Shown here: piece by piece, positions 7,410-39,370 of the stretch
Layout: every line of letters begins with the position of its first letter
Position numbering within the stretch: position 1 is the first letter of the stretch
Assembly: GCA_016699105.1 (NCBI GenBank)
Contig: CP064960.1
Location: 747,696-811,695, forward strand
Origin: a bacterium
Lineage (GTDB): Bacteria > Patescibacteriota > Saccharimonadia > UBA4664
Direction: 5' to 3'
DNA length: 64,000 bases
Translations under genes and position numbers: made by a program
Notes under the pieces: model-generated
Database searches by the model: none
The model's input: only the letters and a program-made list of their open reading frames with translations
Told to the model about the DNA's origin: nothing

Positions 7410-7438
7410 GGATATATTCTATCATGCTTATGGTTTAT

Positions 7439-8293: not shown

Positions 8294-8300
8294 ATCATAA

Positions 8301-19679: not shown

Positions 19680-20172
19680 CAGGTTTAATTATTACTTTCG
19701 AAATCCTGCAGTATTCGTAAATACTGCTCGGTTTCGTGCTTTGGTAATCGTGCGTCAGCGAGTGGCTTTATCCATCCGTCGCTGGCGATGATTTCGTCCT
19801 ATTGCCCCAAAGTAAAAGTCCTCGAGCGTGGCAATAAATAGATATGACGGATTCCACGACTTCTGCATATGCTGGGCAATTTTTAATGTCTCTGCCGTAA
19901 CGAGTTTCGTGCGGTATTTAACTTCGACGAGCTGAACTTTTCGTTTTTCGCATCAGGGTCTATAACGGCAAAATCCGGCGCTGTTCGTAGCGTGTCGATG
20001 ATTCCGCCTTCGATATCTTCGCGATATCCATGTTGCACGAGTTCAGGAAGAATATTCTCGTATCAAATTCTAAAACAGTAAAGTGGCCGCTATTGCGATA
20101 CATCTGAGAAAAGATGTTCTCAGCAATGCGTCCTTTTATCAGTTGGCGGGTAAAATTAATGTTTGTGCTCAT
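19680..20172 (-). pseudogene. PD-(D/E)xK restriction-endonuclease-like protein, multiply frameshifted
   Basis: Pieces lie in three frames: MSTNINFTRQLIKGRIAENIFSQMYRNSGHFTVL, then YENILPELVQHGYREDIEGGIIDTLRTAPDFAVIDPDAKNEK, then VQLVEVKYRTKLVTAETLKIAQHM..., then IKPLADARLPKHETEQYLRILQDFESNN. The D...(E)VK pattern gives a nuclease-fold signature. Confidence 0.4.
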
Positions 20173-20204
20173 GCTTAATACAGTAGCATTAACCTATCGA
20201 GTCG

Positions 20205-20430
20205 TCAGTTAATTGCTGAATCCGAGGAGGCAGGATAATTGCGAATTTCGATGTGTTGAATCGTACCATTTTGGACTATTACATATTCAAGCCCTTTCGA
20301 TTCAACAATTTCACCTCTTTTTCTTGCCAGCAAATGTGTAGTCAAAGAGGATGATGCCTGGCTCAACTTCCTTAGTTGAATTTACCGTCCAAGCCAGTTT
20401 TTCGAACGAGCTATGGAACTCTTTCTGCAT
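20205..20430 (-). CDS. small hypothetical protein upstream of the nuclease-like gene (one apparent frameshift at an A5 run)
   Basis: MQKEFHSSFEKLAWTVNSTKEVEPGIILFDYTFAGKK then RGEIVESKGLEYVIVQNGTIQHIEIRNY. No clear RBS. Confidence 0.3.
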
Positions 20431-20524
20431 GTTCAGAATGTTGGTTTTGGGAGGTCTTGAATTTTGGCAATAAATTCTGCGGGAAGATGTATCATGCTCT
20501 ATAGAATAACCAGGAATTGAGGAG

Positions 20525-21130
20525 TTGTTAATGCCAGCAGAGCAAAATGGAGTGGGTCAAAGTCTATTAACTTCACTTGAAACGTTTGCCTGGTCCGTCC
20601 GTGAGACACCATTACGGTACTTAGGCGATCCGGTGCTGCGGGAGAAATGTACAAAAGTCGCGGCCGACGAGTTTAAGACGTCCTCCATAAAACATCTTGC
20701 CATTGAGTTGGTAAAAGTTCTCATGGATTATCGGCAGAATGTTGGCGTTGGTCGCGGACTAGCAGCAAATCAAATTGGCGCAACTAAACAAATGATTGCC
20801 GTTCTACTCGGTGATGAGCCTGAAGTTTTCTGTAATCCCCGCTTAATAGCTTCGAAAGGTATGGGAAGTTATGGTGAATCGTGTTTGTCATCTGGGGTAA
20901 TGCTGCTCGGAGAGGTTCGACGACCTTGGACAGGAAAGTTTGAATACGAAAACCTAGATGGGGTCACCAAGACGCTCGATGCAGACGAGTTGAAAACACG
21001 GGTGATATTACACGAAATTGATCATCTCAATGGCATTTCCTGCTCTGACAAATATGAGCCAAAAACGATGCGAATTGTGACTGGGGGAAAAGCTGAAGTT
21101 TTCGGGGAGCGGTTTAAGAAATTAGATTAA
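20525..21130 (+). CDS. def: peptide deformylase
   Basis: GVGRGLAANQIG, ESCLS and HEIDHLNG motifs. Confidence 0.85.
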   Translation: MLMPAEQNGVGQSLLTSLETFAWSVRETPLRYLGDPVLREKCTKVAADEFKTSSIKHLAIELVKVLMDYRQNVGVGRGLAANQIGATKQMIAVLLGDEPEVFCNPRLIASKGMGSYGESCLSSGVMLLGEVRRPWTGKFEYENLDGVTKTLDADELKTRVILHEIDHLNGISCSDKYEPKTMRIVTGGKAEVFGERFKKLD

Positions 21131-21802
21131 CCTTTTTGAACTCGATTGGGCTGTAAAGCGCTTGTGGCTGGTTGTACAATACAGCCCATTCTAGATCACC
21201 ATAAGAGAAGTGCCACCATTCACCATAGAAGGGTGCAAAGCCTTGTCTGGTCATGACGTCACAAAGAAGTTTGCGATTTCTTTGTCGCACATCGGATAAA
21301 CCGGAGCTGAAGGTTTGAATCTTGGGGTTAGTAAAGTCGGCAATTGCGGTGCCCATATCGAGTGCAGCACCTGACTCGTCGGCGAGCGTGAGATCGACTG
21401 CTCCGCCAGTGGGGTGTCCGGCAACAGCGGGCACGGCTACGTACATGTGAGTAGCCGCATCGAGCTCATCGTTAGACAACAGTGGACTCACTTGTTTGAG
21501 TAGTGCTCGCTGGTGGTCAAAGTACATTTGCTGAATATCGGGGTGCCTATAGCCGTATTCGATTTTTAATCGTAGTTTGCGCGATGCAAGGGTTTGGTTT
21601 ACGGCTGCCAATTTTTTGGCCACAGTCGTTCTGACGACGATAGTCTCTCCTGTATATGGGAGCATGTCAGTTTTGGCGTATTGAGCGATAATCGAGGGTC
21701 GTAGGATCGGACATCAATCATTTCATCTTGAATATCTTGCGAAGTGATTGGCATTAAATCCTGATATGAGACGATAGTTCGATTCTTGAGATTGAAGTTC
21801 AT
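21114..21802 (-). CDS. D-Ala-D-Ala dipeptidase (VanX/DdpX, peptidase M15D; apparent frameshift near 21690)
   Basis: The N-terminus (EMIDVRSYDP) is in one frame. The remainder (SIIAQYAKTDMLPYTGE...HPTGGAVDLTL...EWWHF) is in another. The junction lies at cgaccctcg. Confidence 0.7.
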
Positions 21803-21883
21803 GTTATTGGTTCCTATTTACTAATTGTTGGACGTAGCTGGGGTCGTAAATCGATTACGGCCCCAGCTACTGTTGCGCAGGGA

Positions 21884-22483
21884 TTACAGCTGGGCCAGCG
21901 CATCCACACAGCTACCGTGCAGGTAGATTCGCTTGGTGCTTTGAGACTGATTGACCTGGACTTGGTCGAGTGCCGACACATCCTGTGAGTTGGTGAGTTC
22001 GGTTGCGCCTAACTTCTGGTAGAGGTGTACCGAGTTTGAACCGACGGCTGCGGTCCTGAGCACATATTGTGTGCCGCCTATCTGCTGGATGATGGATAGC
22101 TGCTCACGGTTGAGGCGTCTACCAATTCCTCTCCTACGAAATGGCTCAAGCACACCGAGCTCGGACATATACCAGGTTGATGTGAAGTTGCCGGCGAATT
22201 CACTTGCAGTCTGCCTCTCACGCAGAAATACTTGGACATCACTAGGCGCATCAAACAGCGGTAGACAGCACCCGAAACCAATCACTCGTTGTGCCTGTAG
22301 TGCGAGAATCACAATGCCGCAGGTAATGTGTGGCTCCCAAATCTTGGTAAACACCTCCTCACTGCTGTAGCTCTCATAGTAAGGTGCTCCGCCAAAGGTA
22401 GATCGATAGGCGGCAATGAAGCCAGACTGAACTTTGAAGGACGTGTCGGCGTTGCCTCGTAGATACGAGACGTGTGTGGTCAC
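21884..22483 (-). CDS. GNAT-family N-acetyltransferase
   Basis: GVLEPFRRRGIGRRL acetyl-CoA motif. The GTG start overlaps the TGA of the upstream gene. Confidence 0.7.
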   Translation of the reverse strand: MTTHVSYLRGNADTSFKVQSGFIAAYRSTFGGAPYYESYSSEEVFTKIWEPHITCGIVILALQAQRVIGFGCCLPLFDAPSDVQVFLRERQTASEFAGNFTSTWYMSELGVLEPFRRRGIGRRLNREQLSIIQQIGGTQYVLRTAAVGSNSVHLYQKLGATELTNSQDVSALDQVQVNQSQSTKRIYLHGSCVDALAQL

Positions 22484-23240
22484 TGAACAACCTCCATTTC
22501 GCTGGCGAGGGTGATCCCGTTGCTGGTAAATCCAACCTGTATCGACTGTCCGGTGAGTTGGACAACGGATGTGGCTCCAGTTACATAGCCAGCGGCGATT
22601 GTGCCTGAGCCCATGACGTCTCATAGAAGAAGGTGTTGACGGCTCGCACCCACACCACTGGGTCTATATGAACCTCAGATTCCGTTTGACGACACCAGAT
22701 GACGCCAACGGCGTCGCGGCTGGCGAGACCGAACTGGGACATGATGCTCGCATGTGCCTGCTCGTAATCGGCCGGATCTTTCGGGAAAGCGGCCTCGACG
22801 ACGACATGTACAATGCCGCCGAGATCAACGATGGTGGCTGGGAACCTGTCCGGCAGGATGACTTGGCGCGCATTCACCGATAGCCCTGGGAATTCGCAGT
22901 GAACGAAAAAGCGGCTAGATGAACGTTGTTCGACGGTTGCATGTACTTTTCCACTGAACCCCGAAACGGTGAAGCTCAGGTTTTCTTGCTGAGTTCCTAT
23001 TTGTGATAGTAGGACGGCTGCGGATCGGGTGGCGTTTCCGCAGAATTCGCCGCCGGCCATTTCGAAGTGATTTTGGTTCAGCACGAGAAATCTGGCTTGC
23101 TCCGCACCTGCTAGCTCGAGCCTTTCGCCGAGAACGCGACCTTGCACTTCGTATTCTTCACGGGTGAGTGGGCGCTTGATGATCTTGATGGCTGTACCGT
23201 TACCACCGGCGGCGGTAATGAGTCTGATTTGGCCAGTCAT
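22480..23240 (-). CDS. DapF-family (diaminopimelate-epimerase fold) protein, apparent frameshift near 22600-22640
   Basis: The N-domain has GGNGTAI (compare GLGNDF) and EFCGNATRS (compare EMCGNGARC, first catalytic Cys). The C-terminal piece is in another frame: MGSGTIAAGYVTG...LTGQSIQVGFTSNGITLASE (compare ACGSGACAAVA). The second catalytic Cys is apparently not conserved. The dapE-like gene lies upstream. Confidence 0.55.
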
Positions 23241-23280
23241 TGCTTACTCCCTTGTGTTAGTTTGGCTTTTGCCTCATAGC

Positions 23281-23310
23281 AAAAGCCCCTCTCTCGACCG
23301 GAGAGGGGGC
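23281..23310 (-). terminator. intrinsic terminator hairpin (GCCCCCTCTCC-ggtcg-AGAGAGGGGC + UUUU)
   Basis: 10-bp GC-rich stem followed by a U4 tract on the minus strand, about 40 nt upstream of the dapF-like start codon. Confidence 0.5.
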
Positions 23311-23326
23311 TAACTTACTTTCATCA

Positions 23327-23356
23327 ATAAAACAAAATCAGGCCGCTCTCCAGCGG
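23327..23356 (-). terminator. intrinsic terminator-like hairpin (CCGCT-ggag-AGCGG + UGAUUUUGUUUU)
   Basis: 5-bp GC stem followed by a U-rich tract. It overlaps the 3' end of the His-rich small ORF. Confidence 0.4.
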
Positions 23357-23397
23357 AAATTTGAATGGTTATGAAGATGATGGAGTCGAACTATCAT
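23338..23397 (-). CDS. candidate leader peptide MIVRLHHLHNHSNFRWRAA (19 aa, 4 His)
   Basis: AGGA lies 6 nt upstream of the ATG. The ORF ends inside the terminator-like hairpin. It is too short to be confident. Confidence 0.2.
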   Translation of the reverse strand: MIVRLHHLHNHSNFRWRAA

Positions 23398-23464
23398 GTA
23401 GGTTCCTTATAATAAAAAATCCCTGAACGTGCATCACGAAGATGCTTGTCCAAGGAACGAGAGG

Positions 23465-23660
23465 AAATAAAAAGAGACCTCTCGCGGTCCCATCCTTGTT
23501 CGCAGGCTATCTCTAGCTTGCGCTCTCAGGCCGGCTCCGCTATTGCGACATCGGCTGCTTAATTTTACGGTTTGGCTTCCGTAGTGCATTTTGACACTCA
23601 GCTCGCGGATCGTGACTCCGCTTCATCGCCTAGGCGACACGCTTTATAGGGTATTTAATT
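23465..23660 (-). promoter_or_regulatory. T-box-like leader candidate (T-box motif + terminator/antiterminator)
   Basis: Minus strand AGGATGGGACCGCG matches 12 of 14 positions of the T-box consensus AGGGUGGNACCGCG. Its 3' half forms the 5' arm of a GGGACC/GGUCUC hairpin followed by UUUUUAUUU (23465-23491). The variable base is G. An upstream hairpin GCGGA-GUCACGA-UCCGC presents CAC in its loop. Confidence 0.3.
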
Positions 23661-23667
23661 TTGTTGA

Positions 23668-23696
23668 ACATTAGCATTATTTTAAATTTACGTCAA
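23668..23696 (-). promoter_or_regulatory. sigma-70-like promoter (TTGACG-17-TAATGT) for the leader
   Basis: The -35 and -10 hexamers have a 17-nt spacer, immediately downstream of the M20 peptidase stop. Confidence 0.35.
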
Positions 23697-23723
23697 GTAT
23701 GTAATTAGGCGATTTGGGAATCT

Positions 23724-24896
23724 TTAGTCTAAATCTACCACTTCTCCAGCTAACCTCGAGAGCAAAGTTAGAAGCGTATTGATTGAATCTGTTAGCGCGT
23801 ATTCATTGGCAGAATGAAAGTTGGCTCCAAACGGTCCATAGCCGGTAATGGTTGGGATTCCGCGAGATATGAGCATATAACTTTCATTGGCCGGACCGGA
23901 CCCCTTGAGAGACGAGTCAACACCAAAGAGTTCTTTGTTTAGCTTTAAGGCTCGTTTCACGATATCGGAGTTCGGATCAGTGAGCACTCCGGGCAGATTA
24001 TTCTTGACCTCAATAGTAAACGTACGCCTGCCATCCGAAAGCCGTTTTGTTAGCTCGGTAGTTTCACTGATTACTTCAGCGTTGCGATGCTCAGGCAAAA
24101 GTCGAATATCAAGGAGAACCTTAGCTCTGTCAGGAACGATCGACTCGCCGGCACCCCCTTCGATCAACGTAGGCGTAAGTACCGAGCGATACCCGGGAAA
24201 ATACTTGTTCTCTCCTGGAAGGGCGAATTCACGTAACTCGCTCAGTAGATCAATGAGCCCGTCGATGGCGTTGCTGCCGCGCTTCTTGTCTTGCCACTCT
24301 TTTGATCCGGAATGAATGCTTTCACCGTGACAAGTGACCCATAGACGAACAAGTCCACGGTGACCAATTGTGAGGTGTGATCCATCGGCGTTTCCACCAT
24401 AGGTATAGACGGCGGTACGGGCATTGAGCCCCTCATCAAGTAAATAACGCAGCCCTAATGTTGAATCAGCTCCAGACTCCTCGTCGGCAACACCAACAAA
24501 TTTTGCAGTATGCAGCTTGCCGGCATCTTTGAGCAGCTTGAGGGCATATAAGCTCATGGCGATTCCGCCCTTACAATCTATGGCACCACGGCCATAAAGG
24601 CGCTCGTTTTCGAGGATGCCGCTGAAAGGCGGATGGGTCCAAGCCGAGGTTTCGCCGACTGGTACTGTATCGAGATGGGCTCCCCGCAAAACCTCGTTTG
24701 TACCCTTAAAGTCCTCACCAACAAAAATATTTGGACGGTTGTTATCTTTTGCAATCACGCGATGCGGTAAGCCCAGCTTTGATGCCTCCGCACGAATTAC
24801 CTCTACAACAGCTGCCTCACCATTTTTTCCATTAACAGAGGGTGTTTGAATTAGCTTCTGAAGAAATGCTACTACATCGTTATGATAAGTTTTCAT
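23724..24896 (-). CDS. M20-family metallopeptidase (ArgE/DapE-like deacylase)
   Basis: GRGAIDCKGGIA metal-binding motif and HSGSKEW. The start is taken at MKTYHNDV. Confidence 0.75.
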   Translation of the reverse strand: MKTYHNDVVAFLQKLIQTPSVNGKNGEAAVVEVIRAEASKLGLPHRVIAKDNNRPNIFVGEDFKGTNEVLRGAHLDTVPVGETSAWTHPPFSGILENERLYGRGAIDCKGGIAMSLYALKLLKDAGKLHTAKFVGVADEESGADSTLGLRYLLDEGLNARTAVYTYGGNADGSHLTIGHRGLVRLWVTCHGESIHSGSKEWQDKKRGSNAIDGLIDLLSELREFALPGENKYFPGYRSVLTPTLIEGGAGESIVPDRAKVLLDIRLLPEHRNAEVISETTELTKRLSDGRRTFTIEVKNNLPGVLTDPNSDIVKRALKLNKELFGVDSSLKGSGPANESYMLISRGIPTITGYGPFGANFHSANEYALTDSINTLLTLLSRLAGEVVDLD

Positions 24897-24942
24897 GTTT
24901 GTATTATAGCAATATCGCGTAAAGCCCTTTGAGATGAAAGAA

Positions 24943-24966
24943 CAAAAAGAGGCTTCGGATAGCCTC
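24943..24966 (-). terminator. intrinsic terminator (GAGGCU-AUCCGA-AGCCUC + U5), copy D of a repeated element
   Basis: The hairpin plus T-run is read on the minus strand, downstream of the NYN gene. Confidence 0.5.
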
Positions 24967-25000
24967 AATTTGGTTACAATTCTTTGGTTGGGGAGAACGT
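24943..25000 (-). repeat. degenerate copy (D) of the tRNA-Gln 3' end + terminator segment (att-like)
   Basis: aaaaagaggcttcggatagcctcaattt...tggttggggagaacg aligns with the copies at 30584 and 31412. Confidence 0.45.
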
Positions 25001-25094
25001 ACCTTGAGTTGTACTTATTATAAAATAATTACGTATTATTGACAAATAATATAATCATTTGCTACAATATTCGTATCACCATGACCGGATAGGC

Positions 25095-25622
25095 CTAAGG
25101 TTTAGACCGACCGCCGATGCCGGTCTTTTGATATTCCAAGGACGACTTTAGCTGGCTGATCTCCACAATATATTTTGAGTACGGTCGCAACAGCTTAGAA
25201 TATTTACTATTGGGTGTGATAATGTGGAGCAGCTTGTTATTTTCCTCGAGGAACTGTATGAGGCATGTGAAATCTCCATCACCGCTCATGATAATGGCTT
25301 TTTCGTAATTAGCATACTCAACCGCAGCAGCATATAGCACAAGCTCAGCATCAACGTTACCTTTTACTGTCTCTTTACCGTTCTCGAAGTAGCGCACAGT
25401 AGGCTTAAAGATCAGTATAAAACCGGCTGCTTGTAATTGTGTGTAAAGCTTTTGGTTATTGGCGACAAGACCGATGAACATGAAAGCACGATCAACGTTA
25501 TATTTGTTTTTAAGGTAGAGGCGGAGCTTTTTGTAATCAACTTGCCATCCCATAGTGCGCACGCCAAGGTTCAGGTTTTGACTATCGATAAAGGCGTAAT
25601 TACTCATCTGCTCCCTCTTCAT
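25095..25622 (-). CDS. NYN-domain (LabA-like, PIN-like) protein
   Basis: YAFIDSQNLNLGVRTMGWQVDY...KGNVDAELV...IIMSGDGDF. Confidence 0.7.
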   Translation of the reverse strand: MKREQMSNYAFIDSQNLNLGVRTMGWQVDYKKLRLYLKNKYNVDRAFMFIGLVANNQKLYTQLQAAGFILIFKPTVRYFENGKETVKGNVDAELVLYAAAVEYANYEKAIIMSGDGDFTCLIQFLEENNKLLHIITPNSKYSKLLRPYSKYIVEISQLKSSLEYQKTGIGGRSKP

Positions 25623-25896
25623 TCATAGACTTACTATACGCGGTTACCGCGTCATCAAGGTCTTTTAGTTTTTGGCCGAATTGCCCAAAGGCAAATGCCG
25701 AGGCAAGAGCCTGAGGATAGCTCACCATCATACCTGAAGGTAGCTTAACAGAGAGGTAGCCTGCTGGATCTGTAGGTTCAATGTTACTTCTAGTCTGTAA
25801 GTGCTTATGTTCGGTAGAATCTGTAGATATATCAGTAGCATGCGTTGAAGTGGATACTATAGCGACATCAGCACTCAAGATGCCATTACCCTTCAA
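25600..25896 (-). CDS. hypothetical protein
   Basis: ORF only, 98 aa. It may be continuous with the upstream ORF if a frameshift is present. Confidence 0.3.
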   Translation of the reverse strand: MKGNGILSADVAIVSTSTHATDISTDSTEHKHLQTRSNIEPTDPAGYLSVKLPSGMMVSYPQALASAFAFGQFGQKLKDLDDAVTAYSKSMNEEGADE

Positions 25897-25932
25897 AAGT
25901 CTGCGGTTTCCATGGTATTTCGAAAATCCGAT

Positions 25933-26358
25933 CTACATCGGCTGCTGCTTTTGCTGAATGCCAAATTCTTGAATAAGACGGTTTGTAAACTGACGTGGAA
26001 TTACCTGCCCCTTTAAGGCACTGTAGATCTCCATAAATAGAGAAGGCGATAACGCTGCGTTGCGTATAGCATCTTCTTTGTCTACATCGGCTAAGGGCAA
26101 TAAGTATTTCTTGGCAATTTGAGACAAAGAATACTGATCCTTTTCTCGGTTTAGCAACCCATAGTGTACAAGAGCCGCCACGGCACGCGCCGATGCGCCA
26201 TTCAGCGAACTATAGCCCATACCTACTGCAATACTCTCACGATTATACTGACCGTTGAGTCCTAGAGTCTCGCTTATGCTGACTATTCGGTTTAGTGCCT
26301 CTTCCAAAGCCATAACGGGATAAGCTCGACTGCGTTCTTTTTTGCTACTTTCTGCCAT
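25933..26358 (-). CDS. hypothetical protein with putative winged-helix segment
   Basis: LNGASARAVAALVHYGLLNRE resembles a wHTH recognition helix. Confidence 0.35.
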   Translation of the reverse strand: MAESSKKERSRAYPVMALEEALNRIVSISETLGLNGQYNRESIAVGMGYSSLNGASARAVAALVHYGLLNREKDQYSLSQIAKKYLLPLADVDKEDAIRNAALSPSLFMEIYSALKGQVIPRQFTNRLIQEFGIQQKQQPM

Positions 26359-26642
26359 ACTATTTTCCCCTCACTTAATTTAACTCTAATTATGGACACT
26401 TGGTTAGTCTAAGTCAATATCATTTAGACTAAGTAGACGTAAAATGCCCACCTAACAGATAGAATTAAATTAGTCTTCAACGTACGGATTATGTTAAGTG
26501 TCTTTACTCTATATCTAAGTAGGGATACGGGATTCGGATTTTTCTATACTGTTCTAATTGGCAGTTACTATTCCAAATATACATATGCAAATCGTAAACC
26601 CCGCCCGAGAGAGAGGCGCAGTTTACGATACTAGCTCCTTTC

Positions 26643-28065
26643 TCAGGCGGGGATAAATCCGTAGGCATCAGCCATGTCGGCGGCTTCAGCAACAAGTGTT
26701 CTGAGTTCCTCGACCGACAGCGGTGGACGCTGCAGGCAGACGGGCCATTCGGCATTGACTGTGGCGATTCCTGCATTCAGAATTTCGGCCCATTGTGGGT
26801 TGCCGATCGTCACTTCGGCGATATGGCTTTGAGCCATGAGGGCCTCGTAGTTTGCCAGTTCTTCCTTAAACGACGGGTACCACTTCGATAGCGGTTTGCA
26901 TGTGCCAGCTATGCAGACGGTTGGGTCTATACGGCGCAGTTTGAGTGCCGGTAGACCCACGCGCAGAGTATGTCCTTCAATTGACAGGCCTTCTTCTACC
27001 TTCCCTTCAACTAGGATGAGTCTTAAGGTGTGGTGTCGTGATGGCAGCGGCCGCCATTGCTGATGTCTCTCGCCCTTTAGGGCTGCTTCGATCCGATCAT
27101 GACGTTCGTACCAGCCTGGACCGCGTTCATACGCCGAAATCTCGCGCATGAGCCAATCCAATACCGACCCGTAGGCATCATTTTCGGCCATGTTGAGCTG
27201 TTGGGTTGGGTCGGAGCACATCATCAGATCAAGTGGATTTCTATTCCACCAGACGCGACTCCTGCCTGCACCGCTGACGAATACCTGTTTGGTTTTCTCA
27301 ACCATCAGTGCCAGAAGCAGTAGCTGCACGGGGTCGCACAGGTGCTCAGCGAACACCTGCATGAAGCCCCGGGCTAGTACCAACGCTTTCTGGACGTCTG
27401 TCATCACGAGGTCCGAGCCATTGAGGGCAAAGTCCTTGTGAGATAGGTGCTGTAGCAGCGGATGTGACATCATGCGTTTCATCTGCCGCAGGCCGTAGTC
27501 TAATCTGTCAACGCACAGCTTGGGTTGGCTATCTTCGATCCAGTCGTTGAGGCTGGGAAAGATGACCTCGTCTGGGTCAATGCCGTACTTTCTGAGTAAG
27601 TCGCAAATTCCGACTTGCTCGAGATACTGGCGCAGACGGGCGTCATGGTTGTTCTGCATGCCTGCCATGCTCTGCGCGATGAAATCGCCTAGGTGCGAGC
27701 CGGTGGTGTGTCCGAGGTCTGACACGAATGTGCGCAGGGCCAGAATGAGCGTGTCGCGCTCGCTGAGGCCATGCAGTTCGGCCATGCGGTAAACGAACAC
27801 GGCACTGCCCCAGGCATGCTCCAGCGGGAAAGAAATGCCCGGTGCCGGGAACGGGTGTGTAGTGCGGAGGCAACGTCAGCTGCTCGACAGCTTTGTGCCG
27901 CCTGACGGCTGGGTGACGAGCCAGGTCCGCCCAAATGGGATGCTCGAATGTATACCGACCCCAGGTCGGGTCGTCGACGGTGAATGTACCGTCAGCCTCG
28001 AACCAAGACTGAAACACGCGCGTCGGACCAACTACCGGAGCGGTTGGCCAAGTGAATGCGTCCAT
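26643..28065 (-). CDS. HD-domain phosphohydrolase of the dGTPase/SAMHD1-like family (apparent frameshift near 27840)
   Basis: ISFPLEHAWGSAVFVYRMAEL (compare TRxEHSLGVAxLA) and VSDLGHTTGSH (compare HDxGHxPFSH) are joined to the upstream frame at ccggg. DRLDYGLRQ matches the D-x-LDY-x-RD motif. About 470 aa. Confidence 0.65.
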
Positions 28066-28187
28066 TCCTGCTCCTCTCGGTTCAGTTGGCAAAGGAACGA
28101 TGAAGCGGTTGCCTCACGTGGCGGGATTGTAGCACATCGCTTGCAATTGGAACAGAAAGGTTATAAGGAGTTTGTTATACTCATGCT

Positions 28188-28394
28188 ATGAAATATATGG
28201 CTTTAGCAGCAGCTGGTTTTCTTTTTCTGAGCGGACTCGGAAACATTTTAATAATATCTATGAAGTTGGACGGGTATGATCTATCGATTAGCGCCATAGT
28301 TGCGGCTGCAACTATCGGATTGGGGTTAGTTGCTCTGTGGGTCGGTTTAAGCAAAAGAGTCACTAGTGCAATACCTAACTTTATAAGACCCTGA
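28188..28394 (+). CDS. small two-TM membrane protein (68 aa)
   Basis: AAGGAG lies upstream. Two hydrophobic helices. Confidence 0.35.
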   Translation: MKYMALAAAGFLFLSGLGNILIISMKLDGYDLSISAIVAAATIGLGLVALWVGLSKRVTSAIPNFIRP

Positions 28395-28887
28395 ATCTAT
28401 TAAGTACAATGAAGCTGATACAAGCGGTTTGTCGGGTGTTCGATGAAGATCAAATCGTTCAGGATACCCGCAGTGAGCACTGCTGACTGCCGAATCTAAT
28501 CTAAGCTAATGCGCTTTTGAAGGCTCTAGTTTTCGTAGGAGTAAATAGAGTATCGGTAAAACACCAATACTACTAACGATCATAAGAGTGATAAACCATC
28601 TTTGATCATTATATTTTGCAGCCTTCAGAGGCAAAGCCTTTCCACACCAATTCCCACACGTAGTGCTAGTGCCAACAAAGTGGCTTGAGTGGTTGTTAAG
28701 TTTATCTCCATTTTGACCTCTAATCTGAGACTAATTATACTCCTTAACTAGCTTCATGGAGCAATGAATGCGTCATATCTCTCTGACCAAGTTCCAAACC
28801 AAGAATCACACTTGTGGAGGTGCTTTATCTTCGCAAACTGTGGCTGGCGGAAATGTGGGCGGTTCGAGAGTTATTTGACAACGGTCG

Positions 28888-29930
28888 TTAAATGGCGTAG
28901 TTTTCGGCTGCAAATTGCGCCTGATCTGCAAATACCTGCTTGGCATTACCAAGAATGCCAAGTTCATAGAACGCTAAGATAGCCAATTTATAGCTCGTGA
29001 TATCGATTGCACGCAGGGACAAGGGAAATGAATCGTGGGCATACAGAATGGCATTTGCAAGAATGCGGCCGGTTCGCTTGTTGCCATCGTTAAACGGCTG
29101 GAGGTAACAAATGTACGTGAAGGCCAGGAGAGCTTTTTCATAGACAATCTGCTTGGAGTTGATGACTTCGCAAAGATGTTTTAGCTCATCTTCAATCTGA
29201 TATTTGTTATCGAGCGGTTTGTATACCGTGCCCGTAATGCCCACTAATCGTTCCCGGATGCCATGGTCAAAGAGGCCTTCGGCGAGAAATTTATGGAGAT
29301 CCACGATAGTTTCTGGGCGAATATCTTCCGCGAATAGATCTTGATTTGCTGCGCCAAAATCTAAAGCTTTTTGTGATTAAGTACCATGGTGGTCTCTTCC
29401 GGTGTTTTGCCTTTAGCCGGAATGCCGTCCTTGAGGAGCGTCTCGGTTTCCAAGAGCGAATAGGTATTGCCTTCAAATTGTGACGACTTCCACGACAGTT
29501 CGATCGTGATACGCTCTCGTTCGCGGCGAATGATGTCAGGCGAGGCAGTTTGAAGCTTTTGCTGGAATACGCTGTTGTAGCCGTCTAGCAGGAGTAACTC
29601 TGGCGGAGCGAACAAAGCCGATTGCCGGAGACTCTCAAGACGATCAAAATCATACTGAAGGGTCGGACGATCCTCGTTTGCAAGAAATGTTTCAAGTTGG
29701 CTCTCCGAAAGCGCAAGGTTGATTTTTCCTTTAGGCACGACAGTGTATGAAATGGCCCTGGCTTCACCTTGCCGACTTACAATACCTAATTCAATGAGTT
29801 CGTTAAGGTCGCGCTGTAAGGTGCGTTCTGTTATCTCAGCGAAACCTGATAGTCGAATGAGTTGCGGAAGTGTATTGTTCCCCGCGAGGAGCGCTACCAC
29901 GATCTGTTGCTGACGACTTGAGACTTTCAT
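28888..29930 (-). CDS. Fic-family protein with N-terminal wHTH (apparent frameshift at the T5/A5 run 29368-29372)
   Basis: HPFxDGNKRTGR motif (QPFNDGNKRTGR). The N-terminal wHTH and the ELSWKSSQFEGNTYSLLETETLL motif are in the upstream frame. They rejoin as ...NHKKALDFGAANQ if the A5 run is read as A6. Confidence 0.75.
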
Positions 29931-29946
29931 GCCCTTAGTTTATCAG

Positions 29947-29988
29947 AATCCCGACAAATTATACGAAGTATTGCGACATTTGTCGGGA
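29947..29988. promoter_or_regulatory. perfect 12-bp inverted repeat ATCCCGACAAAT-N18-ATTTGTCGGGAT overlapping the Fic promoter (candidate operator)
   Basis: The palindrome brackets a TATAAT -10 element on the minus strand, about 30 nt upstream of the Fic ATG. Confidence 0.45.
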
Positions 29989-30109
29989 TACTTACATCTG
30001 AGATTTTTCTAACTCAATAATGGCTTAGAGAAGGTAATGAATGAACATAGAAAGATACCGACCCAAAATCGGATTGTTAATTTGGTTCTGTCATGAGCTA
30101 ATAATTCCT

Positions 30110-30147
30110 TGGCTGGGGCGGCAGTTCTGGAACCAAACTTATGAGGG
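30110..30147 (-). repeat. degenerate copy (C) of the tRNA-Gln 3' end (tggctggggcggcag...)
   Basis: The first 15 nt match the tRNA-Gln acceptor/T-stem 3' end with 2 mismatches. Confidence 0.4.
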
Positions 30148-30209
30148 TGATCCGGTGGTAGTGGTCGATGAAATCCGTGAACTGCTTAACGAAAACGAAT
30201 TAGATGGGA

Positions 30210-30560
30210 CGCTTTGTCATGATTAAACGATCATTAAACGCTCCGCGCTTTTCTCGCTTCTCATTCTGTACGTCGAGGATATCGGCCTTCGAAAGCTCCT
30301 TCAAAGCAATTAATGCATCGATGATTTCGTACACGTCGGCGATTTCTTCGACAATGTTCGAGTCTGAGTGCGCCTCCGAAAGCTCCTGCGCCTCCTCGAC
30401 GATTTTTTCAAGATGAACTCAAGATACTCCTGGTCACCCTCAGCCGATTGGGCGGCTGGTTCTATACCTTTTGCCGCACTATTTCGGGTATCTTGTCGCG
30501 AACTAATTTTGGATATTCATTTTCCAGAGGAAGTGCAGTCTCGGTATGTTCAAAGCTCAT
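30210..30560 (-). CDS. MazG-like nucleoside-triphosphate pyrophosphohydrolase (two apparent frameshifts at A-runs)
   Basis: YPKLVRDKIPEIVRQKG...EYLEFILKKIVEEAQELSEA...EEIADVYEIIDALIALKELSKADI reads across three frames. Confidence 0.5.
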
Positions 30561-30583
30561 ATTGAGAGCTTACCAGAAAATAC

Positions 30584-30674
30584 AAAAAGAGGCTTCGGAC
30601 AGCCTCAATTTGTTGACAAATGATGTGATTGTTGCATGGCTGGGGCGACAGTCACTATTCCAAACTGAAGCGGG
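30584..30674 (-). repeat. copy (A) of the tRNA-Gln 3' end + terminator segment (att-like), including the terminator hairpin 30589-30606
   Basis: About 88% identical over 67 nt to 31412-31480. It ends with tggctggggcgacag. Confidence 0.55.
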
Positions 30675-30708
30675 CCCGGGTTACCCAATTGGGGTCCGGG
30701 CCATGTTG

Positions 30709-31226
30709 TTACAGCTCCTTTCGAAATAGTCGCATGTGCGTGCCGTCATGCGTTGTGATCGGGTCGTATTCGACGTAACCGCTCTTCAGCGGCACCGCGA
30801 GCGAAGCCGCATTGTCCGGCTCGACTCGAATTACTGAACGCTTGACGCCCGTTCACGCAGAAAGCCTTCGAGCAACGTGATGGCATGAGCCATGAGGCCT
30901 TGTCCGCGAAATTGAGGGGTAGAGTGCATAGGAGACGTTGGCGTCGCCTTCCAAAAGAGACCGTCGAGCCGTTGCCAATCTACGTTCGCCTCGACCATGC
31001 CGGCAAGTTGCCCCGATGACAGGTCAATGACTGCGAAGTTGAAAACCGGACCACCATTTTCCCAAGATTCGAGATTGCGATCTATCCACGCAGTGGTGCC
31101 TGCGATAGTGCTCGGTCCGCCGCTGAGCCACTTGGTTTGCTCGGGGTCGTCGCCGGCAACATGTGCCGCAACGTCGTCGTGCGTGAAACGTCGGATTTGG
31201 ACACGGGCATCTGAAATGCTGGACAT
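30709..31226 (-). CDS. GNAT-family N-acetyltransferase (apparent frameshift near 30850)
   Basis: The N-terminal part ends ...MAHAITLLEGFLRER. The C-terminus is in another frame (VKRSVIRVEPDNAASLAVPLKSGYVEYDP), with a GGG-run at the junction. Confidence 0.6.
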
Positions 31227-31411
31227 GTGTTTTCCTTTGTACGGATGAAAGAGCTTAAGCTAAATTACAACATATGTGCTTACTTTGTCAATTTTAGAAA
31301 GGAAATATGAAGATGAATGAATTGAATATAAACGAGACTTCAAACTGCTATCTGAGTTCAAACTCTACAGAGAAAGTTTGGATAGCTGTCAACCCTCAAA
31401 ATCGAACAAAC

Positions 31412-31434
31412 AAAAAAAGGCTTCGGATAGCCTC
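31412..31434 (-). terminator. intrinsic terminator immediately 3' of tRNA-Gln (copy B)
   Basis: AGGCUAUCCGAAGCCU hairpin followed by a U7 tract on the minus strand. Confidence 0.55.
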
Positions 31435-31464
31435 AATTTGTTGACAAATGATGTAATTATTACA

Positions 31465-31539
31465 TGGCTGGGTCGGCAGGATTCGAACCTGCGAATGACG
31501 GGACCAAAACCCGTTGCCTTACCGCTTGGCGACGACCCA
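31465..31539 (-). tRNA. tRNA-Gln (anticodon UUG)
   Basis: Folded manually: U1-A72 acceptor (TGGGTCG/CGACCCA); D-loop AAGCGGTAAGGC; anticodon stem ACGGG/CCCGT with loop TTTTGGT; T-arm GCAGG-TTCGAAT-CCTGC; discriminator G; encoded CCA. It matches the E. coli tRNA-Gln architecture. Confidence 0.85.
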
Positions 31540-31573: not shown

Positions 31574-32623
31574 ATGTCAATTTCTACACGATCCATTGTC
31601 AAAGTCCTGGCTGTGACCTTTCTGTTTGTGGGTGGTATTTATCTCATTTATCTGGCCAGACAGCCGATTGTGTGGGTTGTTGGCGGCGGCTTATATTGCG
31701 GTAGCTATTAACCCGCTCGTGGAGTGGTTTGCCCAGTTTATGCCCAAAAGAGCCGGGTGGGTGGCAGTATTCTGACCGTTTCACTCATCGGCGGGTTTAT
31801 CTTGACGATGATCATGACCTTGGTGCCACCATTGGTCTATCAGACCGAACAGTTGATTCGTAATCTCCCTATTATGCCGAAGCCTTGGTGGCTGGTGATT
31901 GGTGGGTATCAGATCAGATCAGAACGCTTAAAATGGTTGAAGTCATCCAGCAAGCGCAAGGACAGATTATTAATGGTTTGTCATCGGCGGGTGGATCAGT
32001 ATTCACCGTCGCTGGCACAATCTTCAGTGGGTTTACTGCCGTATTTACTGTACTGATCATGACATTGTTTATGGAAGTGGAAGGTCCCAAATGGCTGGAA
32101 GCATTTTGGCGCCTGGTGACACCCAAGCACCGGGTGCGATGGCAGCGGCTGGCTCATGGCATGTATGAGACGGTGACTGGTTATGTGACTGGAAACTTGA
32201 TGACAAGTTTACTGGCCGCCGGATTGACCACTATTGTTTTGATTGCGGTCGGAGTACCGTATGCGGTGCCGCTCGGTATGCTGGTGGCTATATTGGACTT
32301 TATTCCACTCGTTGGTGCAACGATCGCGGCTATTATTATAATAATTGTGTCATTTTTCACTTCACCATTCGCTGCGGTTGTGAGTGCCATATTCTTCGGT
32401 GTCTATCAACAAGTTGGAGAACCAAATCTTACAACCCTTGATCTATGGCAAAACGGTGCAGCTTTCACCGCTGGTGGTACTGACGAGCGTGTTAATTGGT
32501 GCTAGTCTCGGTGGCATCTTGGGCGCGATGGTAGCCATCCCGGTGAGCGCCAGTATTCAGATTATCGTCCGGGAATTTGTCTTAGAGAAGCTCGAAGCCA
32601 AGCGTCACGCGGCTAAATCGTAA
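31574..32623 (+). CDS. AI-2E family transporter (PerM/UPF0118), at least 3 apparent frameshifts
   Basis: [35 protein letters not shown]...[39 protein letters not shown] reads across four ORF fragments. Confidence 0.55.
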
Positions 32624-34366
32624 GCTTGTAGTTCTTCGGGCGTTGGGTTCGTCGACTGGAGTTTAAGCAATTGCTCATATAGTCCACCGCTGTGGGCTAA
32701 TTGAGCGGGAGTGCCTTGTTCGCTGACCTGGCCGTGCTCCAGGCATACAATGCTGTCTACATGGGCAATGGTACTGAGGCGGTGGGCAATGATGAGCGTG
32801 GTGCGGTCGCGCATGAGGCGTTCAAGGGCTTGTTGGACTTGGACTTCGGCACGTGAGTCTAAGGCGCTGGTGGCTTCATCTAAGATGAGAATTGGTGCGT
32901 CCTCGAGAATGGCCCGGGCGATGGCAATACGCTGCTTTTGGCCGCCGCTGAGTTTAACGCCGCGCTCGCCTATCTGGGTCTCGAGTTTGTCCGGTAATTC
33001 GTAGACAAATTTGGCATTGGCGGCTTCGATGGCTTTTTGATATTGGCTTCAGTGGATTCGGGTAATCCATAGGTGATGTTGTCGCGAACTGTGCCACTAA
33101 AGAGGGCCGGCTCTGGAAGACGACGGCTATATGTTGGCGGAGAGACTGCTGGGTGACATCGCGAATATTCTGACCATCTATTTCAATCTGACCGGCGGTG
33201 GTTTCGTAAAAGCGACAGAGCAGATTGGCAATAGTTGATTTACCTTGCCCGCTCTCGCCCACCAAAGCTAATTTGGAACCAGCGGCAGCTGCAAAACTAA
33301 TGCCGCGCAATACTGATTGTCCGTCGGCATAGCCAAAACTGACATCACTAAACGAAATTTGGCCGTTGGTAATGCGCATTGGACGCGCGTGGGTTTGTCA
33401 GTAATGGTGGCGGGTGTGTCCATGATATCAAAGAAATCTTTGGAGCCTGCGGATGCTCGTTGCAAACTATCTACAATAAATGAACTCGCAAACAATGGGA
33501 ATTGAGCCTGCGTGACCAATCCAATCAGTAAGGTGAAATCACCAAGTGTAATTACCACTGTAGGTTTGATACACCACGTAGGCGTAAATACCGGCGAATA
33601 TAACGTTGAGTCCAATGCGCCGAGCCACATCATACCAGTGCCACTCGATGGATTGGCCGCGAGTGAGCTGCTCAATTGAATGACGCTGCCTCTTGAAAAA
33701 TTGGCGCTCGAGATTTTCGGATACATAGGATTTAACTGCTCGGATTTGGTTGATAGCTTCGGTAAAACGACCTTGCGTCAGATCGAGGTGTTTGTTGATC
33801 ACTTGTTGCTTGGCTTGCCAGTGACGGCTCGAAAGTGTAGTTAACCAAATGTATAACGGGAATAATCCGCCCAGTAAGATGGCGATGGCCAGGCATAAAA
33901 CGCCAAAATGACGAGCGTCACCATGGCTGACAAAAGAATCCCAGGAAATTGTTGGCCAGGGCATTCATCATATTGGCGATAGTGTTGATGCCACGGTCGA
34001 GGCGGCTGGTGAGACGTCCGCTGACCTGGTTATCGTAAAGCTCAGCGGTAGTGTCAGGATATGGTCGTAGTAGCGGCGTGCCAGTAAGGTGTGGAGTTTA
34101 CTACCTAATTGATCACAGAATCCTTGGATATTGGCCAGAATGGTCGTGAGAAGACTGACCACCAATATGCCGACGATGAGCCAGATGAAATAACTGCCGG
34201 CTGGCAATGTCGGATGTAAGCTTTTTATCTAATCCGTCGACGAGGAATTTAAGAAAAACGGTGTGGCTTGGGCAAATAAAGCCAATATTACGACAAGTCC
34301 GGCGTTGATGAGATAGTATCGCTTCAGGCTCCACGAATATTTGATGATGCGAATGATATCTTTCAT
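32605..34366 (-). CDS. ABC exporter, fused permease-ATPase (MsbA-like), at least 5 apparent frameshifts
   Basis: The N-terminal TMD ([12 protein letters not shown]...FLKFLVDGL), Walker [10 protein letters not shown], signature/Walker B and the C-terminal D-loop IIAHRLSTI are spread over six ORF fragments. Confidence 0.65.
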
Positions 34367-34441: not shown

Positions 34442-36030
34442 CATGCGTATTAGTCCGCTTGGGTTGCAAACCCGATCAGATATAGCCAGCCACATTCGAT
34501 GGTATATATCGTTGCGCTGGCTATTGCTGACGGCCATTATAGTCCCCGGTCTGCTATCTCTGGCAGCGGAACAGGATTGAGTGCCGAAGTTCTGCGCGAT
34601 ACCCGTCTTGGATTGGTCATGTTTGGCATGAACGTGGTCTTTTACGGATTAGCCCGGCGGTGGCGTCATTCGATGCGTCAAGCAGCGATATTGGCAGCCG
34701 TTATCTTATTCTTTGATATTTTAATCATTACGTTTTTTATATATACCAAAGGTGGTATTGAAAGCCGAAGTATTTTTCTTCTATTTTATTCCGATTATTA
34801 TGGCCGCCGCCTTATACGGTCGCAGTGCGGTTTATGTGACAGCATTGACAGTCATGGCGTGTTATAACGGACTGATTTTGGCTGATCATTTTCACCTTGT
34901 CTCGGTCATTGGTGAGTTAACGCCATATCTGAGCAATGATAGTGCCTATGTGCTGAACTCAGTAGTGTTTACGAGCTCATCTATTTTAATAGTTACAGTG
35001 GTTGTCGATTTTCTGGCTCATTTGTTGCAGCATGATAAAGAGGCATTGGAGAAAAGTCTCGATGCCTTTGCCCAGGCGCAGACCATTGCCCACGTTGGAA
35101 GCTGGGAATACGAACTAAATTCGAGAAGTCGATGCACTGGTCGGCCGAGCTATTTCGAATATTAGGTTACAAACCTGATCGCGATGTGCCATCGTGTGCG
35201 GCTCTGACTGCGAATATGAATGAAGATGACCGTTACTCGTTCCAGCAACTCTGTGATGAAGTAATACGAGTCAGAAACCACGTCGCGGTAATTTTCGGGT
35301 CGATATCGGTGATGATACTCACTATTTGCACGCGGAAATGCGTCCAGTGGTAGGACATGAAGGCAAATCGGAATGGGTTATTGGTACTATGCACGACGTG
35401 ACTGACGCATGGCGACTGGAAGAGGCTCGCAATGATTTTGTGTCGTTGGCATCGCATCAGTTGCGGACACCGGCGACGGTGGTGAAACAATATTTGCACG
35501 TATTGGACGGCATGGCCGGTCGACTGACTCCTGAACAGCAGACGCTGGCGCAAAAAGCCTTGACGGGAATGAGCGGCAATTGCGCATCGCTAACGACCTT
35601 ATGCGGGTCGTGCAATTTGAATCAGGTCGATTGAAGCTGAAGAAATCGTCTGCTGATTTAGCCAAGCTGTTACCGACCGTTATCGCTGATTTACGACCAC
35701 AACTATCGAACCGTCAGCAGACGATTCGTTATCGGTGTCGCCGTCGATCAATCATGTGCCGGGTAGATGCCGAACGATTATGGATGGCTTTGGAGAATAT
35801 TATCGAAAAATGCCTCCAAATACAGCCCAGAACAGGCGGTTATCAAGGTAAATTTGGTACAGACAGTTGACGAGATTCGTATTTCGGTGCGTGATCAGGG
35901 GTCGGTATTGCCGAAGATGACATTCCGAAAATGTTCCAAAAATTTGCACGTGCAAAATCGCCTAAGCACGCAAGTTGGTGGGAGTGGTTTGGGCATGTAT
36001 TTGGCAAGTAAAAATTATAATGCTGCATAA
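34442..36030 (+). CDS. sensor histidine kinase (TM + PAS + HisKA + HATPase_c), multiple apparent frameshifts
   Basis: PAS-like HVGSWEYEL; HisKA SHQLRTP; HATPase GGSGLGMYLA. Spread over seven ORF fragments. Confidence 0.6.
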
Positions 36031-37812: not shown

Positions 37813-37836
37813 GGATATAATCCTGATAGGTTTTGA

Positions 37837-38779: not shown

Positions 38780-38871
38780 AATGCTTGCCGTCCTTCCAAC
38801 GCCCGGCCTAAGGTTATTTGATCGGCGTATTCAAGATCGCCGCCGACCGGTAAGCCGCGGGGCCAGTCTAG

Positions 38872-39370
38872 TCACTTTGATATCGGTTTTTCAAGCGCTT
38901 CCCGAATGTACATGGCAGTGGATTCTCCTTCGAGGGATGGATTAGTGGCTAATATAACTTCGGTAATTCCTCTTCGGGTAGCCGTTTGAGTAAACTGGCG
39001 ATCTGGAGCCTTTCGGGTCCGATACCGTCTATGGGCGAGATGACGCCACCCAAGACGTGATACAGCCCATGATAAAGTCCGGTTTTTCGATGGCGACCAC
39101 GTCAAATGGCTCTTCGACGATGGCGATGATTGACTGTTCGCGGCTGGATGACGGCAGACATTGCACAAATCATCTTCGGCGAAATTGAAAACATTTACGG
39201 CAAGACCGGACACTGGCGTGTAAATTATCTAACGCCCGGCCTAAGCCTTGGGCGCGCTCGGGTGAATTCTTGAGGATGAAAAAGCTAATCGTTCGGCCGT
39301 GCGGACCCACGCCGGGCAGCCGGCCAAGTTCATCGATCAGTTTTTCGACTGAGTGTGGTACTACGCGCAT
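38872..39370 (-). CDS. recR: recombination protein RecR (frameshifted)
   Basis: N-terminal Hh[15 protein letters not shown]; C4 zinc finger CRKC...CNVC; Toprim [22 protein letters not shown]. Confidence 0.65.

Follow-up and report, generated by a model that had tools for sequence, protein, structure and literature searches.

Positions 23700-31539 of the stretch analysed here, a window of 64,000 nucleotides (nt) from contig CP064960.1 (assembly GCA_016699105.1) of a Saccharimonadia bacterium, probably form an integron-like array of gene cassettes, lying behind the 3' end of a tRNA-Gln gene and served by a recombinase encoded elsewhere in the genome. The cassettes are 0.5-2.5 kb long, carry mostly one gene each and contain no integrase. 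Judging from the sequences compared, the locus represents one case of a more widespread tRNA-Gln cassette system in bacteria of the Candidate Phyla Radiation (CPR), without description in the literature that was searched on CPR/Saccharibacteria arrays, integrons and tRNA islands, where nothing relevant was found. A preliminary description, made from the DNA letters alone, had read the region as an accretion island with four degenerate att-like repeats.

The sole tRNA that ARAGORN finds in the window is tRNA-Gln(ttg), on the minus strand, and the genes of the region are oriented as it is, toward lower coordinates (a 68-aa open reading frame, ORF, on the plus strand is entered separately). A repeat search of the window returned a family of 76-nt direct repeats with three copies, B (31404-31479), A (30576-30651) and D (24936-25011); identity between A and B is 88% over the 76 nt, and for D it is 62%. 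A second, 33-nt family adds copy C (30093-30125). Three instances of the 22-nt terminator motif AATTGAGGCTATCCGAAGCCTC, each with no more than one mismatch, and two exact ones of the spacer motif were counted, in both cases against 0.00 expected from shuffles, and neither motif is found elsewhere in the 64 kb. Taken by itself, the tRNA 15-mer is less convincing than these two motifs: in a local-alignment scan the core of copy C, with one mismatch to the 15-mer, beats all shuffles, the 15-mer of copy A alone is borderline, with the adjoining 52 nt 88-90% identical to B, and the tRNA piece of copy D is by itself not significant. Terminator-like hairpins were called by a terminator scan on the minus strand at B, A, D and the right arm of C, and the same scan placed promoter-like sites ahead of cassette genes. 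Alignment also shows a left-arm motif common to window junctions A, C and H and to junction E of L006, a contig from a close strain, and reveals more degenerate copies beyond the original four, namely H (26555-26577) and a spacer-like piece at 25036-25059. The direct repeats of tRNA-Gln 3' end, spacer and terminator noticed previously are hence recovered and confined to this locus, C and D being the weaker copies, and they align better than the flanking DNA. Taken together, these data support the view that the repeats are att-like footprints, left by repeated integration at the 3' end of tRNA-Gln.

The array is composed of the following features, in window coordinates and ordered from the tRNA outward:

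31580-31551, minus strand: promoter-like TTGACA-18-CATAAT upstream of tRNA-Gln (promoter/terminator scan)
31465-31539, minus strand: intact tRNA-Gln(ttg) (ARAGORN); in strain L006 the tRNA scores 63.6 bits against Rfam tRNA
31465-31479, minus strand: putative attB-like attachment core, the last 15 nt of the tRNA, CTGCCGACCCAGCCA
31404-31464, minus strand: right arm of junction B, with spacer TGTAATAATTACATCATTTGTCAACAA and hairpin GAGGCTATCCGAAGCCTT plus T run (31417-31434), from repeats, terminator scan and motif counts
30709-31226, minus strand: GNAT acetyltransferase cassette gene (Pfam Acetyltransf_3), frameshifted here, intact with 171 aa in contig L075
30576-30666, minus strand: junction A, with truncated left arm TTTGGAATAGTGACTG (30649-30664), core variant CTGTCGCCCCAGCCA (30637-30651), spacer and terminator (30589-30606)
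30200-30560, minus strand: cassette gene for a MazG-like / PRA-PH-like nucleoside triphosphate (NTP) pyrophosphohydrolase, with two single-base indels; repaired product 120 aa
30041-30226, plus strand: junction C, the complete module, with core CTGCCGCCCCAGCCA (30110-30124), left arm AGTTTGGTTCCAGAA and terminator-like hairpin (30058-30072)
28888-29930, minus strand: helix-turn-helix Fic protein (Pfam Fic), 347 aa when intact, frameshifted here, intact in L075
28506-28711, minus strand: DUF5652-like small membrane ORF, frameshifted here; gene calls and Pfam DUF5652 in L075 and L076
28188-28394, plus strand: small membrane ORF of 68 aa; gene calls in L075 and L076
26643-28065, minus strand: 473-aa remote SAMHD1-like HD-superfamily protein (phmmer against PDB), frameshifted here
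26555-26577, minus strand: junction H, degenerate remnant TTTGGAATAGTAACTGCCAATTAG, after a hairpin at 26591-26629; one mismatch to the left-arm motif, 0.06 expected
25600-26358, minus strand: 253-aa protein with no assigned function, frameshifted here; intact as a 253-aa plus NYN pair in L006 and L074
25095-25607, minus strand: NYN/PIN-like nuclease domain protein (Pfam NYN, 5.6e-16)
24936-25059, minus strand: junction D, with spacer-like piece (25036-25059), diverged core CCCCAACCA, spacer AAGAATTGTAACC, and terminator GAGGCTATCCGAAGCCTC plus T run (24949-24966)
23724-24896, minus strand: M20 metallopeptidase (Pfam Peptidase_M20), the last cassette-like unit, replaced in L075
23695-23723, minus strand: probable distal array end ttcccaaatcgcctaattacatacttgacg, read by eye, which may be a badly decayed junction

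Some of these features deserve a further word. The repaired MazG-like protein is 100% identical to P0121 and has weak PRA-PH and NCBIfam matches. Junction H contains the piece TTTGGAATAGTAACTGCC at 26560-26577. The terminator motif of junction D has no mismatches, and this junction is 83% identical over 48 nt to the tRNA-proximal junction of L006. Just outside the distal array end, at about 23480-23690 (L006:10898-11083) and upstream of CntK_N-like and GNAT genes, lies a T-box-leader-like element (Rfam RF00230, 35.5 bits against a gathering score of 93, E 7.9e-5).

Strains of close relationship differ at this locus in a way that follows the junctions. In comparison with L006, L007 and L008, the window is 99.4% identical over 20001-28169, 96% in the upstream flank and 89-90% in the GNAT cassette, while 28169-30665 has no DNA match in any of the three, which are without junction A, the MazG-like cassette and junction C. 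The left breakpoint relative to L006 falls at 30665, within junction A, and homology resumes at 28169; the two small membrane ORFs travel with the Fic segment that is missing from L006, where a Fic protein at the same position is only 38% identical to that of the window. Contig L075 is 98.2% identical to the window between 31518 and 26589 and diverges there, just before junction H; where the window has the 253-aa gene, NYN, junction D and the M20 peptidase, L075 has an EamA transporter. Its EamA cassette terminates in gaaaaagAACTGCCGACCCAGCCAtgaattattac, which repeats the final 15 nt of the tRNA exactly, and homology resumes at 23700, 25 nt past the exact L075 core AACTGCCGACCCAGCCAtgaattattac. 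All five between-strain breakpoints lie within ~70 nt of a junction, and whole cassettes distinguish strains whose shared DNA is 98-99% identical, with the differences placed exactly at junctions. Since L075 replaces the M20 gene by EamA ahead of the resumed homology, the peptidase lies inside the variable array; the gene beyond copy D, previously taken for the flank outside the island, must be counted in, with the array running to ~23700 and D as an internal junction. The bracketing of cassettes by repeats stands, whereas the segment from C to D, proposed as one element, comprises at least three cassettes (Fic with the small ORFs; HD-like; 253-aa with NYN). The term immobilised remnants was also too strong, given near-identical strains that differ by whole cassettes and an insert in L006 that sits directly after tRNA-Gln between two perfect 18-nt repeats of the tRNA end.

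This GC-rich insert of 166 nt (L006:3955-4120), flanked by two exact copies of ATCCTGCCGACCCAGCCA, would sit between 31464 and 31465 in the window. It opens with a perfect terminator-like hairpin, and a long stem, GGGCGGUCGGCAGGG/CCUGCCGACCC, closes a three-way junction; the 226 nt that comprise insert, second repeat copy, spacer and terminator fold at -110 kcal/mol (z-score -8.7). An Rfam scan of L006 gave only the tRNA and the sub-threshold T-box, with no match in the insert. About 100 nt of it are also found between two junction cores in another strain (P0265), and it behaves like a non-coding mini-cassette. Contig L008 (1-917) carries a complete insertion sequence of ~915 nt, with a DDE_Tnp_1 transposase and inverted repeats ACCGTGAAT, between the tRNA terminator and the GNAT promoter (window ~31301), and begins exactly at its end.

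Part of the strain pattern would also be expected from a homologous-recombination mosaic, in which the repeats would be portable terminator and spacer modules plus homology at the tRNA flank, and strain differences would arise by natural transformation and RecA-mediated exchange anchored in flanking genes or in the repeats, with no dedicated recombinase. Saccharibacteria are naturally transformable, the whole Fic segment is swapped while the flanks on either side are conserved, the GNAT alleles share 90% identity, and identity declines toward the tRNA, as near a recombination hot spot. Homologous exchange, however, replaces sequence and would not duplicate the last 15 nt of the tRNA at each cassette boundary, and the exact 18-nt duplication that flanks the L006 insert points to conservative site-specific insertion. 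We therefore consider such a mosaic quite unlikely as the origin of the array.

It should be noted that the quality of the window sequence itself is limited. Many of its genes are split by frameshifts, with several single-base indels at homopolymer runs, for example in 30200-30560, 28888-29930, 26643-28092, 31600-32600, 32954-33964 and 34499-35870, and 4944 nt aligned with L075 contain 22 gaps. In short-read contigs from this strain or a near-identical one, intact genes are present for GNAT (171-175 aa), Fic (347 aa), the HD-like protein (473 aa), the 253-aa protein and NYN (170 aa), so the apparent pseudogenes are best taken as sequencing indels; the window looks like an uncorrected long-read assembly and not like a case of pseudogenisation. 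The breaks in the GNAT, MazG-like, Fic, HD-like and 253-aa genes are accordingly single-base indel errors of this assembly. An error-prone long-read contig might by misassembly have generated both the repeats and the cassette order, and the many single-base indels relative to short-read contigs would fit this; each junction of the window, nevertheless, is reproduced in independent short-read contigs of other samples (L075-L079, L074, L006-L010), which makes a misassembly extremely improbable. Two long ORFs elsewhere in the window, thymidylate kinase plus ThyX (61000-62646, 548 aa) and class-V aminotransferase plus NUDIX (56963-58486, 507 aa), may be true fusions or neighbours merged by assembly indels. 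At 6840-9044 there are two adjacent proteins whose C-terminal domains resemble type IV secretion pilins (T4SS_pilin, 3.3e-9 and 5e-4).

A metagenome scan with the 3' 30-mer of the tRNA retrieved 61 loci, mostly from unrelated taxa that share the tRNA end, of which L052 and L027 are informative. L052 has an identical tRNA-Gln, ~70% nucleotide identity to window 36388-39128 and, as in the window, a divergent AI-2E permease upstream of the tRNA; the downstream side leads directly into housekeeping genes (2-hydroxyacid dehydrogenase, HAD hydrolase, RidA and others), and both the repeats and the island genes are missing. Repeated integration at tRNA-Gln, as first suggested, is thereby upheld, close strains carrying the repeats and L052 having neither repeats nor genes. 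The expectation of an empty site in a relative is borne out in part: L052 is free of the island, but the downstream synteny is not conserved and it is hence not a clean empty site. Concerning the M20 peptidase, a scan of genome contigs gave only matches of 24-27% identity, and synteny around this gene could not show an empty site because its homologues in L011 and L012, 62-65% identical, lie in unrelated contexts. Homologues of the M20 and MazG-like proteins carry Patescibacteria names in their sources, among them Shapirobacteria, Woesebacteria, Microgenomates and Saccharimonadales. A second exact CTGCCGACCCAGCCA lies 117 nt downstream of the tRNA-Gln end in L058 (3879-4010; similar in L013), from an unrelated metagenome lineage, which suggests that insertions target this 3' end in further taxa as well; within the 30-mer scan a second core was seen only in L058.

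The junctions are also found in other organisms. A conserved module with consensus AGTTTGG(N8)CTGCCG(A/C)CCCAGCCA, preceded by an arm of ~95 nt and about 110-130 nt long as a whole, delimits the single-gene cassettes that follow tRNA-Gln in at least three further CPR lineages. L080 belongs to a different organism, with a MazG-like protein 65% identical to that of the window, and presents the array tRNA-Gln, NUDIX, MazG, low-molecular-weight phosphatase and N6/N4 methyltransferase. The 3' end of its intact tRNA-Gln, CTGCCGCCCCAGCCA, is identical to the core of window copy C and one base off that of copy A; AGTTTGG(N8)CTGCCGCCCCAGCCA follows each gene, and the 15-mer is present in every gap. L085 shows the same arrangement with tRNA-Gln, two genes, APH, a 276-aa gene and a methyltransferase, and this last cassette is 83% identical in amino acids between L080 and L085, while the neighbouring cassettes differ. 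In L086 a tRNA-Gln(ctg) is followed by a single kinase-like cassette and a junction, the stretch common to tRNA and junction being ~7-12 nt around CAGCCA, which again points to site-specific insertion and against a mosaic made by homologous exchange. On the contig of P0248 (19 kb, gene calls only), genes for Fic (347 aa), NUDIX, GNAT and GATase and three toxin-antitoxin pairs extend over more than 10 kb, with ORFs of 37-71 aa scattered between them. Window cores A and C carry the CGCCCCA variant seen in L080 and L085, while the resident tRNA-Gln has CGACCCA; the cassettes would therefore have come from genomes whose tRNA-Gln has CGCCCCA. In the window the inserted DNA abuts the intact tRNA-Gln, with the cassettes starting 60 nt downstream, and L006, L080, L085 and L086 show the same placement.

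As regards the enzyme, a Pfam scan of 40 ORFs of the window, each 170 aa or longer, found no integrase or recombinase domain, shorter ORFs and frameshifted fragments not having been scanned exhaustively, in line with the earlier statement that the window has no integrase gene. The gene calls of the L006, L075, L080, L085, L086 and P0248 arrays include no integrase either. Upstream of tRNA-Gln in the arrays examined we found AI-2E permease, ABC transporter, histidine kinase and cysS as neighbours, and no intI or recombinase domain beside the first cassette. Two antisense genes directly behind tRNA-Gln in L085, of 371 and 254 aa, were considered as recombinases and set aside as cargo, with no Pfam, PDB or PHROG match. 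The 371-aa protein (L085:11152-12267) has a C-terminal GKTDILVRV...FIGECKFW that by eye resembles a PD-(D/E)xK nuclease, and the 254-aa protein has by eye a membrane-anchored look.

These results bear on the more conventional possibility of an ordinary accretion island, in which integrase-bearing prophages or integrative elements entered at tRNA-Gln and decayed to cargo and att scars. Direct repeats of a tRNA 3' end beside the intact tRNA are the classical footprint of that process, and decay is evident at junctions A, H and D. In the published literature the nearest match is the model of tRNA-proximal islands put forward for the tycheposons of Prochlorococcus, where partial tRNAs are scattered through the islands (10.1101/2020.12.28.424599). 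As in tycheposon and accretion islands, or remnants of cis-mobilizable elements, the island studied here abuts an intact tRNA 3' end, partial tRNAs separate the insertions, new material enters beside the tRNA and strain variability is greatest there. In contrast to them, the arrays examined here contain no integrase, replication or excision gene or fragment, no phage gene is found in the window island or in the L006, L075, L080, L085, L086 and P0248 arrays, and the units are single genes, each ending in a conserved, micro-ORF-bearing module common to different organisms. Cassettes so uniformly small, with the same ending across organisms, would not be yielded by independent deletions. The tRNA end, the two junction patterns and the micro-ORF, termed X and treated below, are absent from 2.9 million viral contigs, and as far as these data go the module is not phage-borne. 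Decay of prophages or of integrative and conjugative elements is thus disfavoured, the same module bounding single-gene cassettes in unrelated, integrase-free contigs, and we regard an ordinary accretion island as unlikely, even if it is not negligible.

The junction module has a further property. In the direction antisense to the cassettes, core and arm together encode an acidic micro-ORF of 40-60 aa, X (WLGRQFWNQTFEDD..EIRELLD), which reads WLGRQFWNQTFEDDVEVKIDEIRELLD followed by an acidic tail, WLGRQ being the reverse complement of the tRNA end. The complete X of the window is the 61-aa ORF at 30041-30226 on the plus strand, with GAAGG ~6 nt before its ATG; it is 100% identical to P0234 and is called as a gene at junction C in L075-L079. 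When the six frames of the window were searched with the X profile, only C (7.7e-23), A (partial, 3.4e-6), the tRNA end (0.013) and D (weak, 0.19) matched. A word-indexed profile search gave 28 clusters, and an exhaustive profile search of 1.84 billion representatives gave 318 at E <= 1e-3 and 41 at E <= 1e-10. Nearly all matches are 36-139 aa long, WLGR is kept in nearly all sequences read, and the other replacements are conservative; several of the short ORFs on the P0248 contig are X-sized. The AlphaFold model has two helices at low confidence (mean predicted local distance difference test, pLDDT, 67). Most X-bearing contigs are short, and the repeated junctions therefore probably break short-read assemblies.

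Other interpretations of the module were tried. A split integrase gene, as in SSV-type (Sulfolobus spindle-shaped virus) integration with attP inside int, was rejected because the ORF that spans the core has only 40-87 aa. Junctions acting as attC-like hairpins were rejected as well: six modules folded as single-stranded DNA do no better than shuffles (z-scores -0.36 to +0.76). The antisense core TGGCTGGGGCGGCAG resembles a retroviral primer-binding site, and the array could in principle be the relic of a tRNA-primed retroelement with cassettes copied through RNA. The complementarity of this core to the tRNA-Gln 3' end is the sole evidence on that side; there is no reverse transcriptase in the L006, L075, L085, L086 and P0248 arrays, the direct copies that make up the repeats lie next to the tRNA gene itself, and bacterial retroelements are not known to use tRNA primers, so that this origin is very improbable.

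In the integron-like mechanism that we favour, a circular cassette, whose joined ends would make up the full junction module, recombines with the tRNA-Gln 3' end, which would play the role that attI has in an integron. The recombinase must be encoded elsewhere in the genome, because none lies in the array. Each insertion would regenerate the tRNA and leave its last ~15 nt duplicated at the distal end of the incoming cassette, and successive insertions would push older cassettes outward. The new cassette would stand beside the tRNA with its own terminator and, it appears, its own promoter: it would start with a short spacer and an intrinsic terminator, stopping transcription from the tRNA or the preceding cassette, and would end with the conserved junction module. 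Because each cassette ends in this module, the former tRNA-proximal junction would turn into an internal, attP-like one, which may allow later excision or exchange until it decays, as at A, H and D. What the data show is the anatomy of the repeats, their conservation in other genomes, the cassette-level differences between near-identical strains at the junctions and a relative that is free of the island; the recombinase, the circular intermediates and any role of X are inferred.

Several observations weigh against this mechanism. No recombinase was found, so site-specific recombination is read only from the repeat footprint, and no circular or excised form of a cassette was seen. The strain differences could partly reflect homologous recombination after DNA uptake. 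Only ~12 loci were examined, most of them on short contigs, and the window junctions H and D and the distal end are too decayed for significance alone. Furthermore, X is only a candidate coding sequence: conservation of its antisense frame is matched by that of one sense frame (amino-acid identity 0.52 vs 0.53), stops in nine sites number one in the X frame and two in the sense frame, and the third-position excess over seven junctions (173, 165, 278) fits either frame. The protein database holds called ORFs only, so that decayed X copies are invisible in it. The product of the sense shadow frame is a serine-rich, low-complexity string with no start codon.

Among known systems, sedentary chromosomal integrons share with the array small, mostly single-gene cassettes, largely in one orientation, with a recombination site at each cassette end, the occurrence of the same cassettes in different orders across genomes, a recombinase outside the cassette, and a cargo rich in GNATs, NUDIX/NTP pyrophosphatases, toxin-antitoxin pairs and proteins without assigned function. 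They differ from it in several respects: there is no intI beside the array, which begins at a tRNA gene and not at attI, the junctions show neither the single-stranded hairpin folding of attC nor, by reading, its GTTRRRY core, and the cassettes carry terminators and promoter-like sites. With no intI present, the array is not an integron in the strict sense. Another comparison is offered by the Xer-dependent integrative mobile elements (IMEX) at dif and the pdif modules of Acinetobacter plasmids, which are integrase-less modules bounded by host-site copies in tandem. Here too, small gene modules without a recombinase accumulate in tandem between copies of a host site; unlike in those systems, the site is an asymmetric tRNA 3' end and not a 28-bp dif-like palindrome, with no dyad around the core by reading. 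As a tentative extension, which we hold with rather less confidence than would make it the expected outcome, a CPR group, probably Saccharimonadia, may have independently built an integron analogue, with the 3' end of tRNA-Gln as its site, the cassette-end module, which contains a mimic of the tRNA end, in the role of attC, a dedicated recombinase encoded elsewhere in the genome that moves single-gene cassettes in and out, and X as a new, widespread family of at least 318 clusters that has a role in the reaction or its control.

The cargo had also been proposed to form an undescribed defence island, for which little speaks. In PADLOC-DB 2.0 the Fic protein matches SoFic (1.4e-10, profile positions 20-216 of 361) and the candidate PDC-S04, and the NYN protein has a match at 3.4e-7, all partial and at domain level only; the HD-like, MazG-like, GNAT and 253-aa proteins have no match there, and there is no full-length system protein. 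The HD-like protein matches SAMHD1 chains in the PDB by phmmer (E 1.3e-5, residues 20-169) and has the motifs RWEHAWG and VSDLGHTTGSH, with SD where the family has HD (HDxGH); it matches nothing in Pfam (HD included), PADLOC or PHROG, and could be an inactive or divergent protein resembling a deoxynucleoside triphosphatase. In a further CPR genome (L084), ribosomal and translation genes surround a homologue of the MazG-like gene, an ordinary housekeeping setting. Overall, the cargo is closer to what chromosomal integrons carry as accessory genes than to the content of a dedicated defence island.

The CPR/Patescibacteria have tiny genomes and few recognised mobile elements, and gene exchange among them is poorly understood. 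Should the recombinase prove to be an ordinary one, the locus would still be a well-documented example of a tRNA-anchored island in a phylum with none described in the literature searched. The junction module and the X micro-ORF provide a concrete signature for finding such arrays in metagenomes, and genetic tools for cultivable Saccharibacteria might make use of the junction as a candidate attB/attP pair. If the cassette mechanism is true, a dedicated capture site behind tRNA-Gln would explain why near-identical strains differ by single accessory genes, and this site would be common to several lineages, which would draw on a stock of Fic, NUDIX/MazG-type, GNAT, methyltransferase, kinase and toxin-antitoxin genes.

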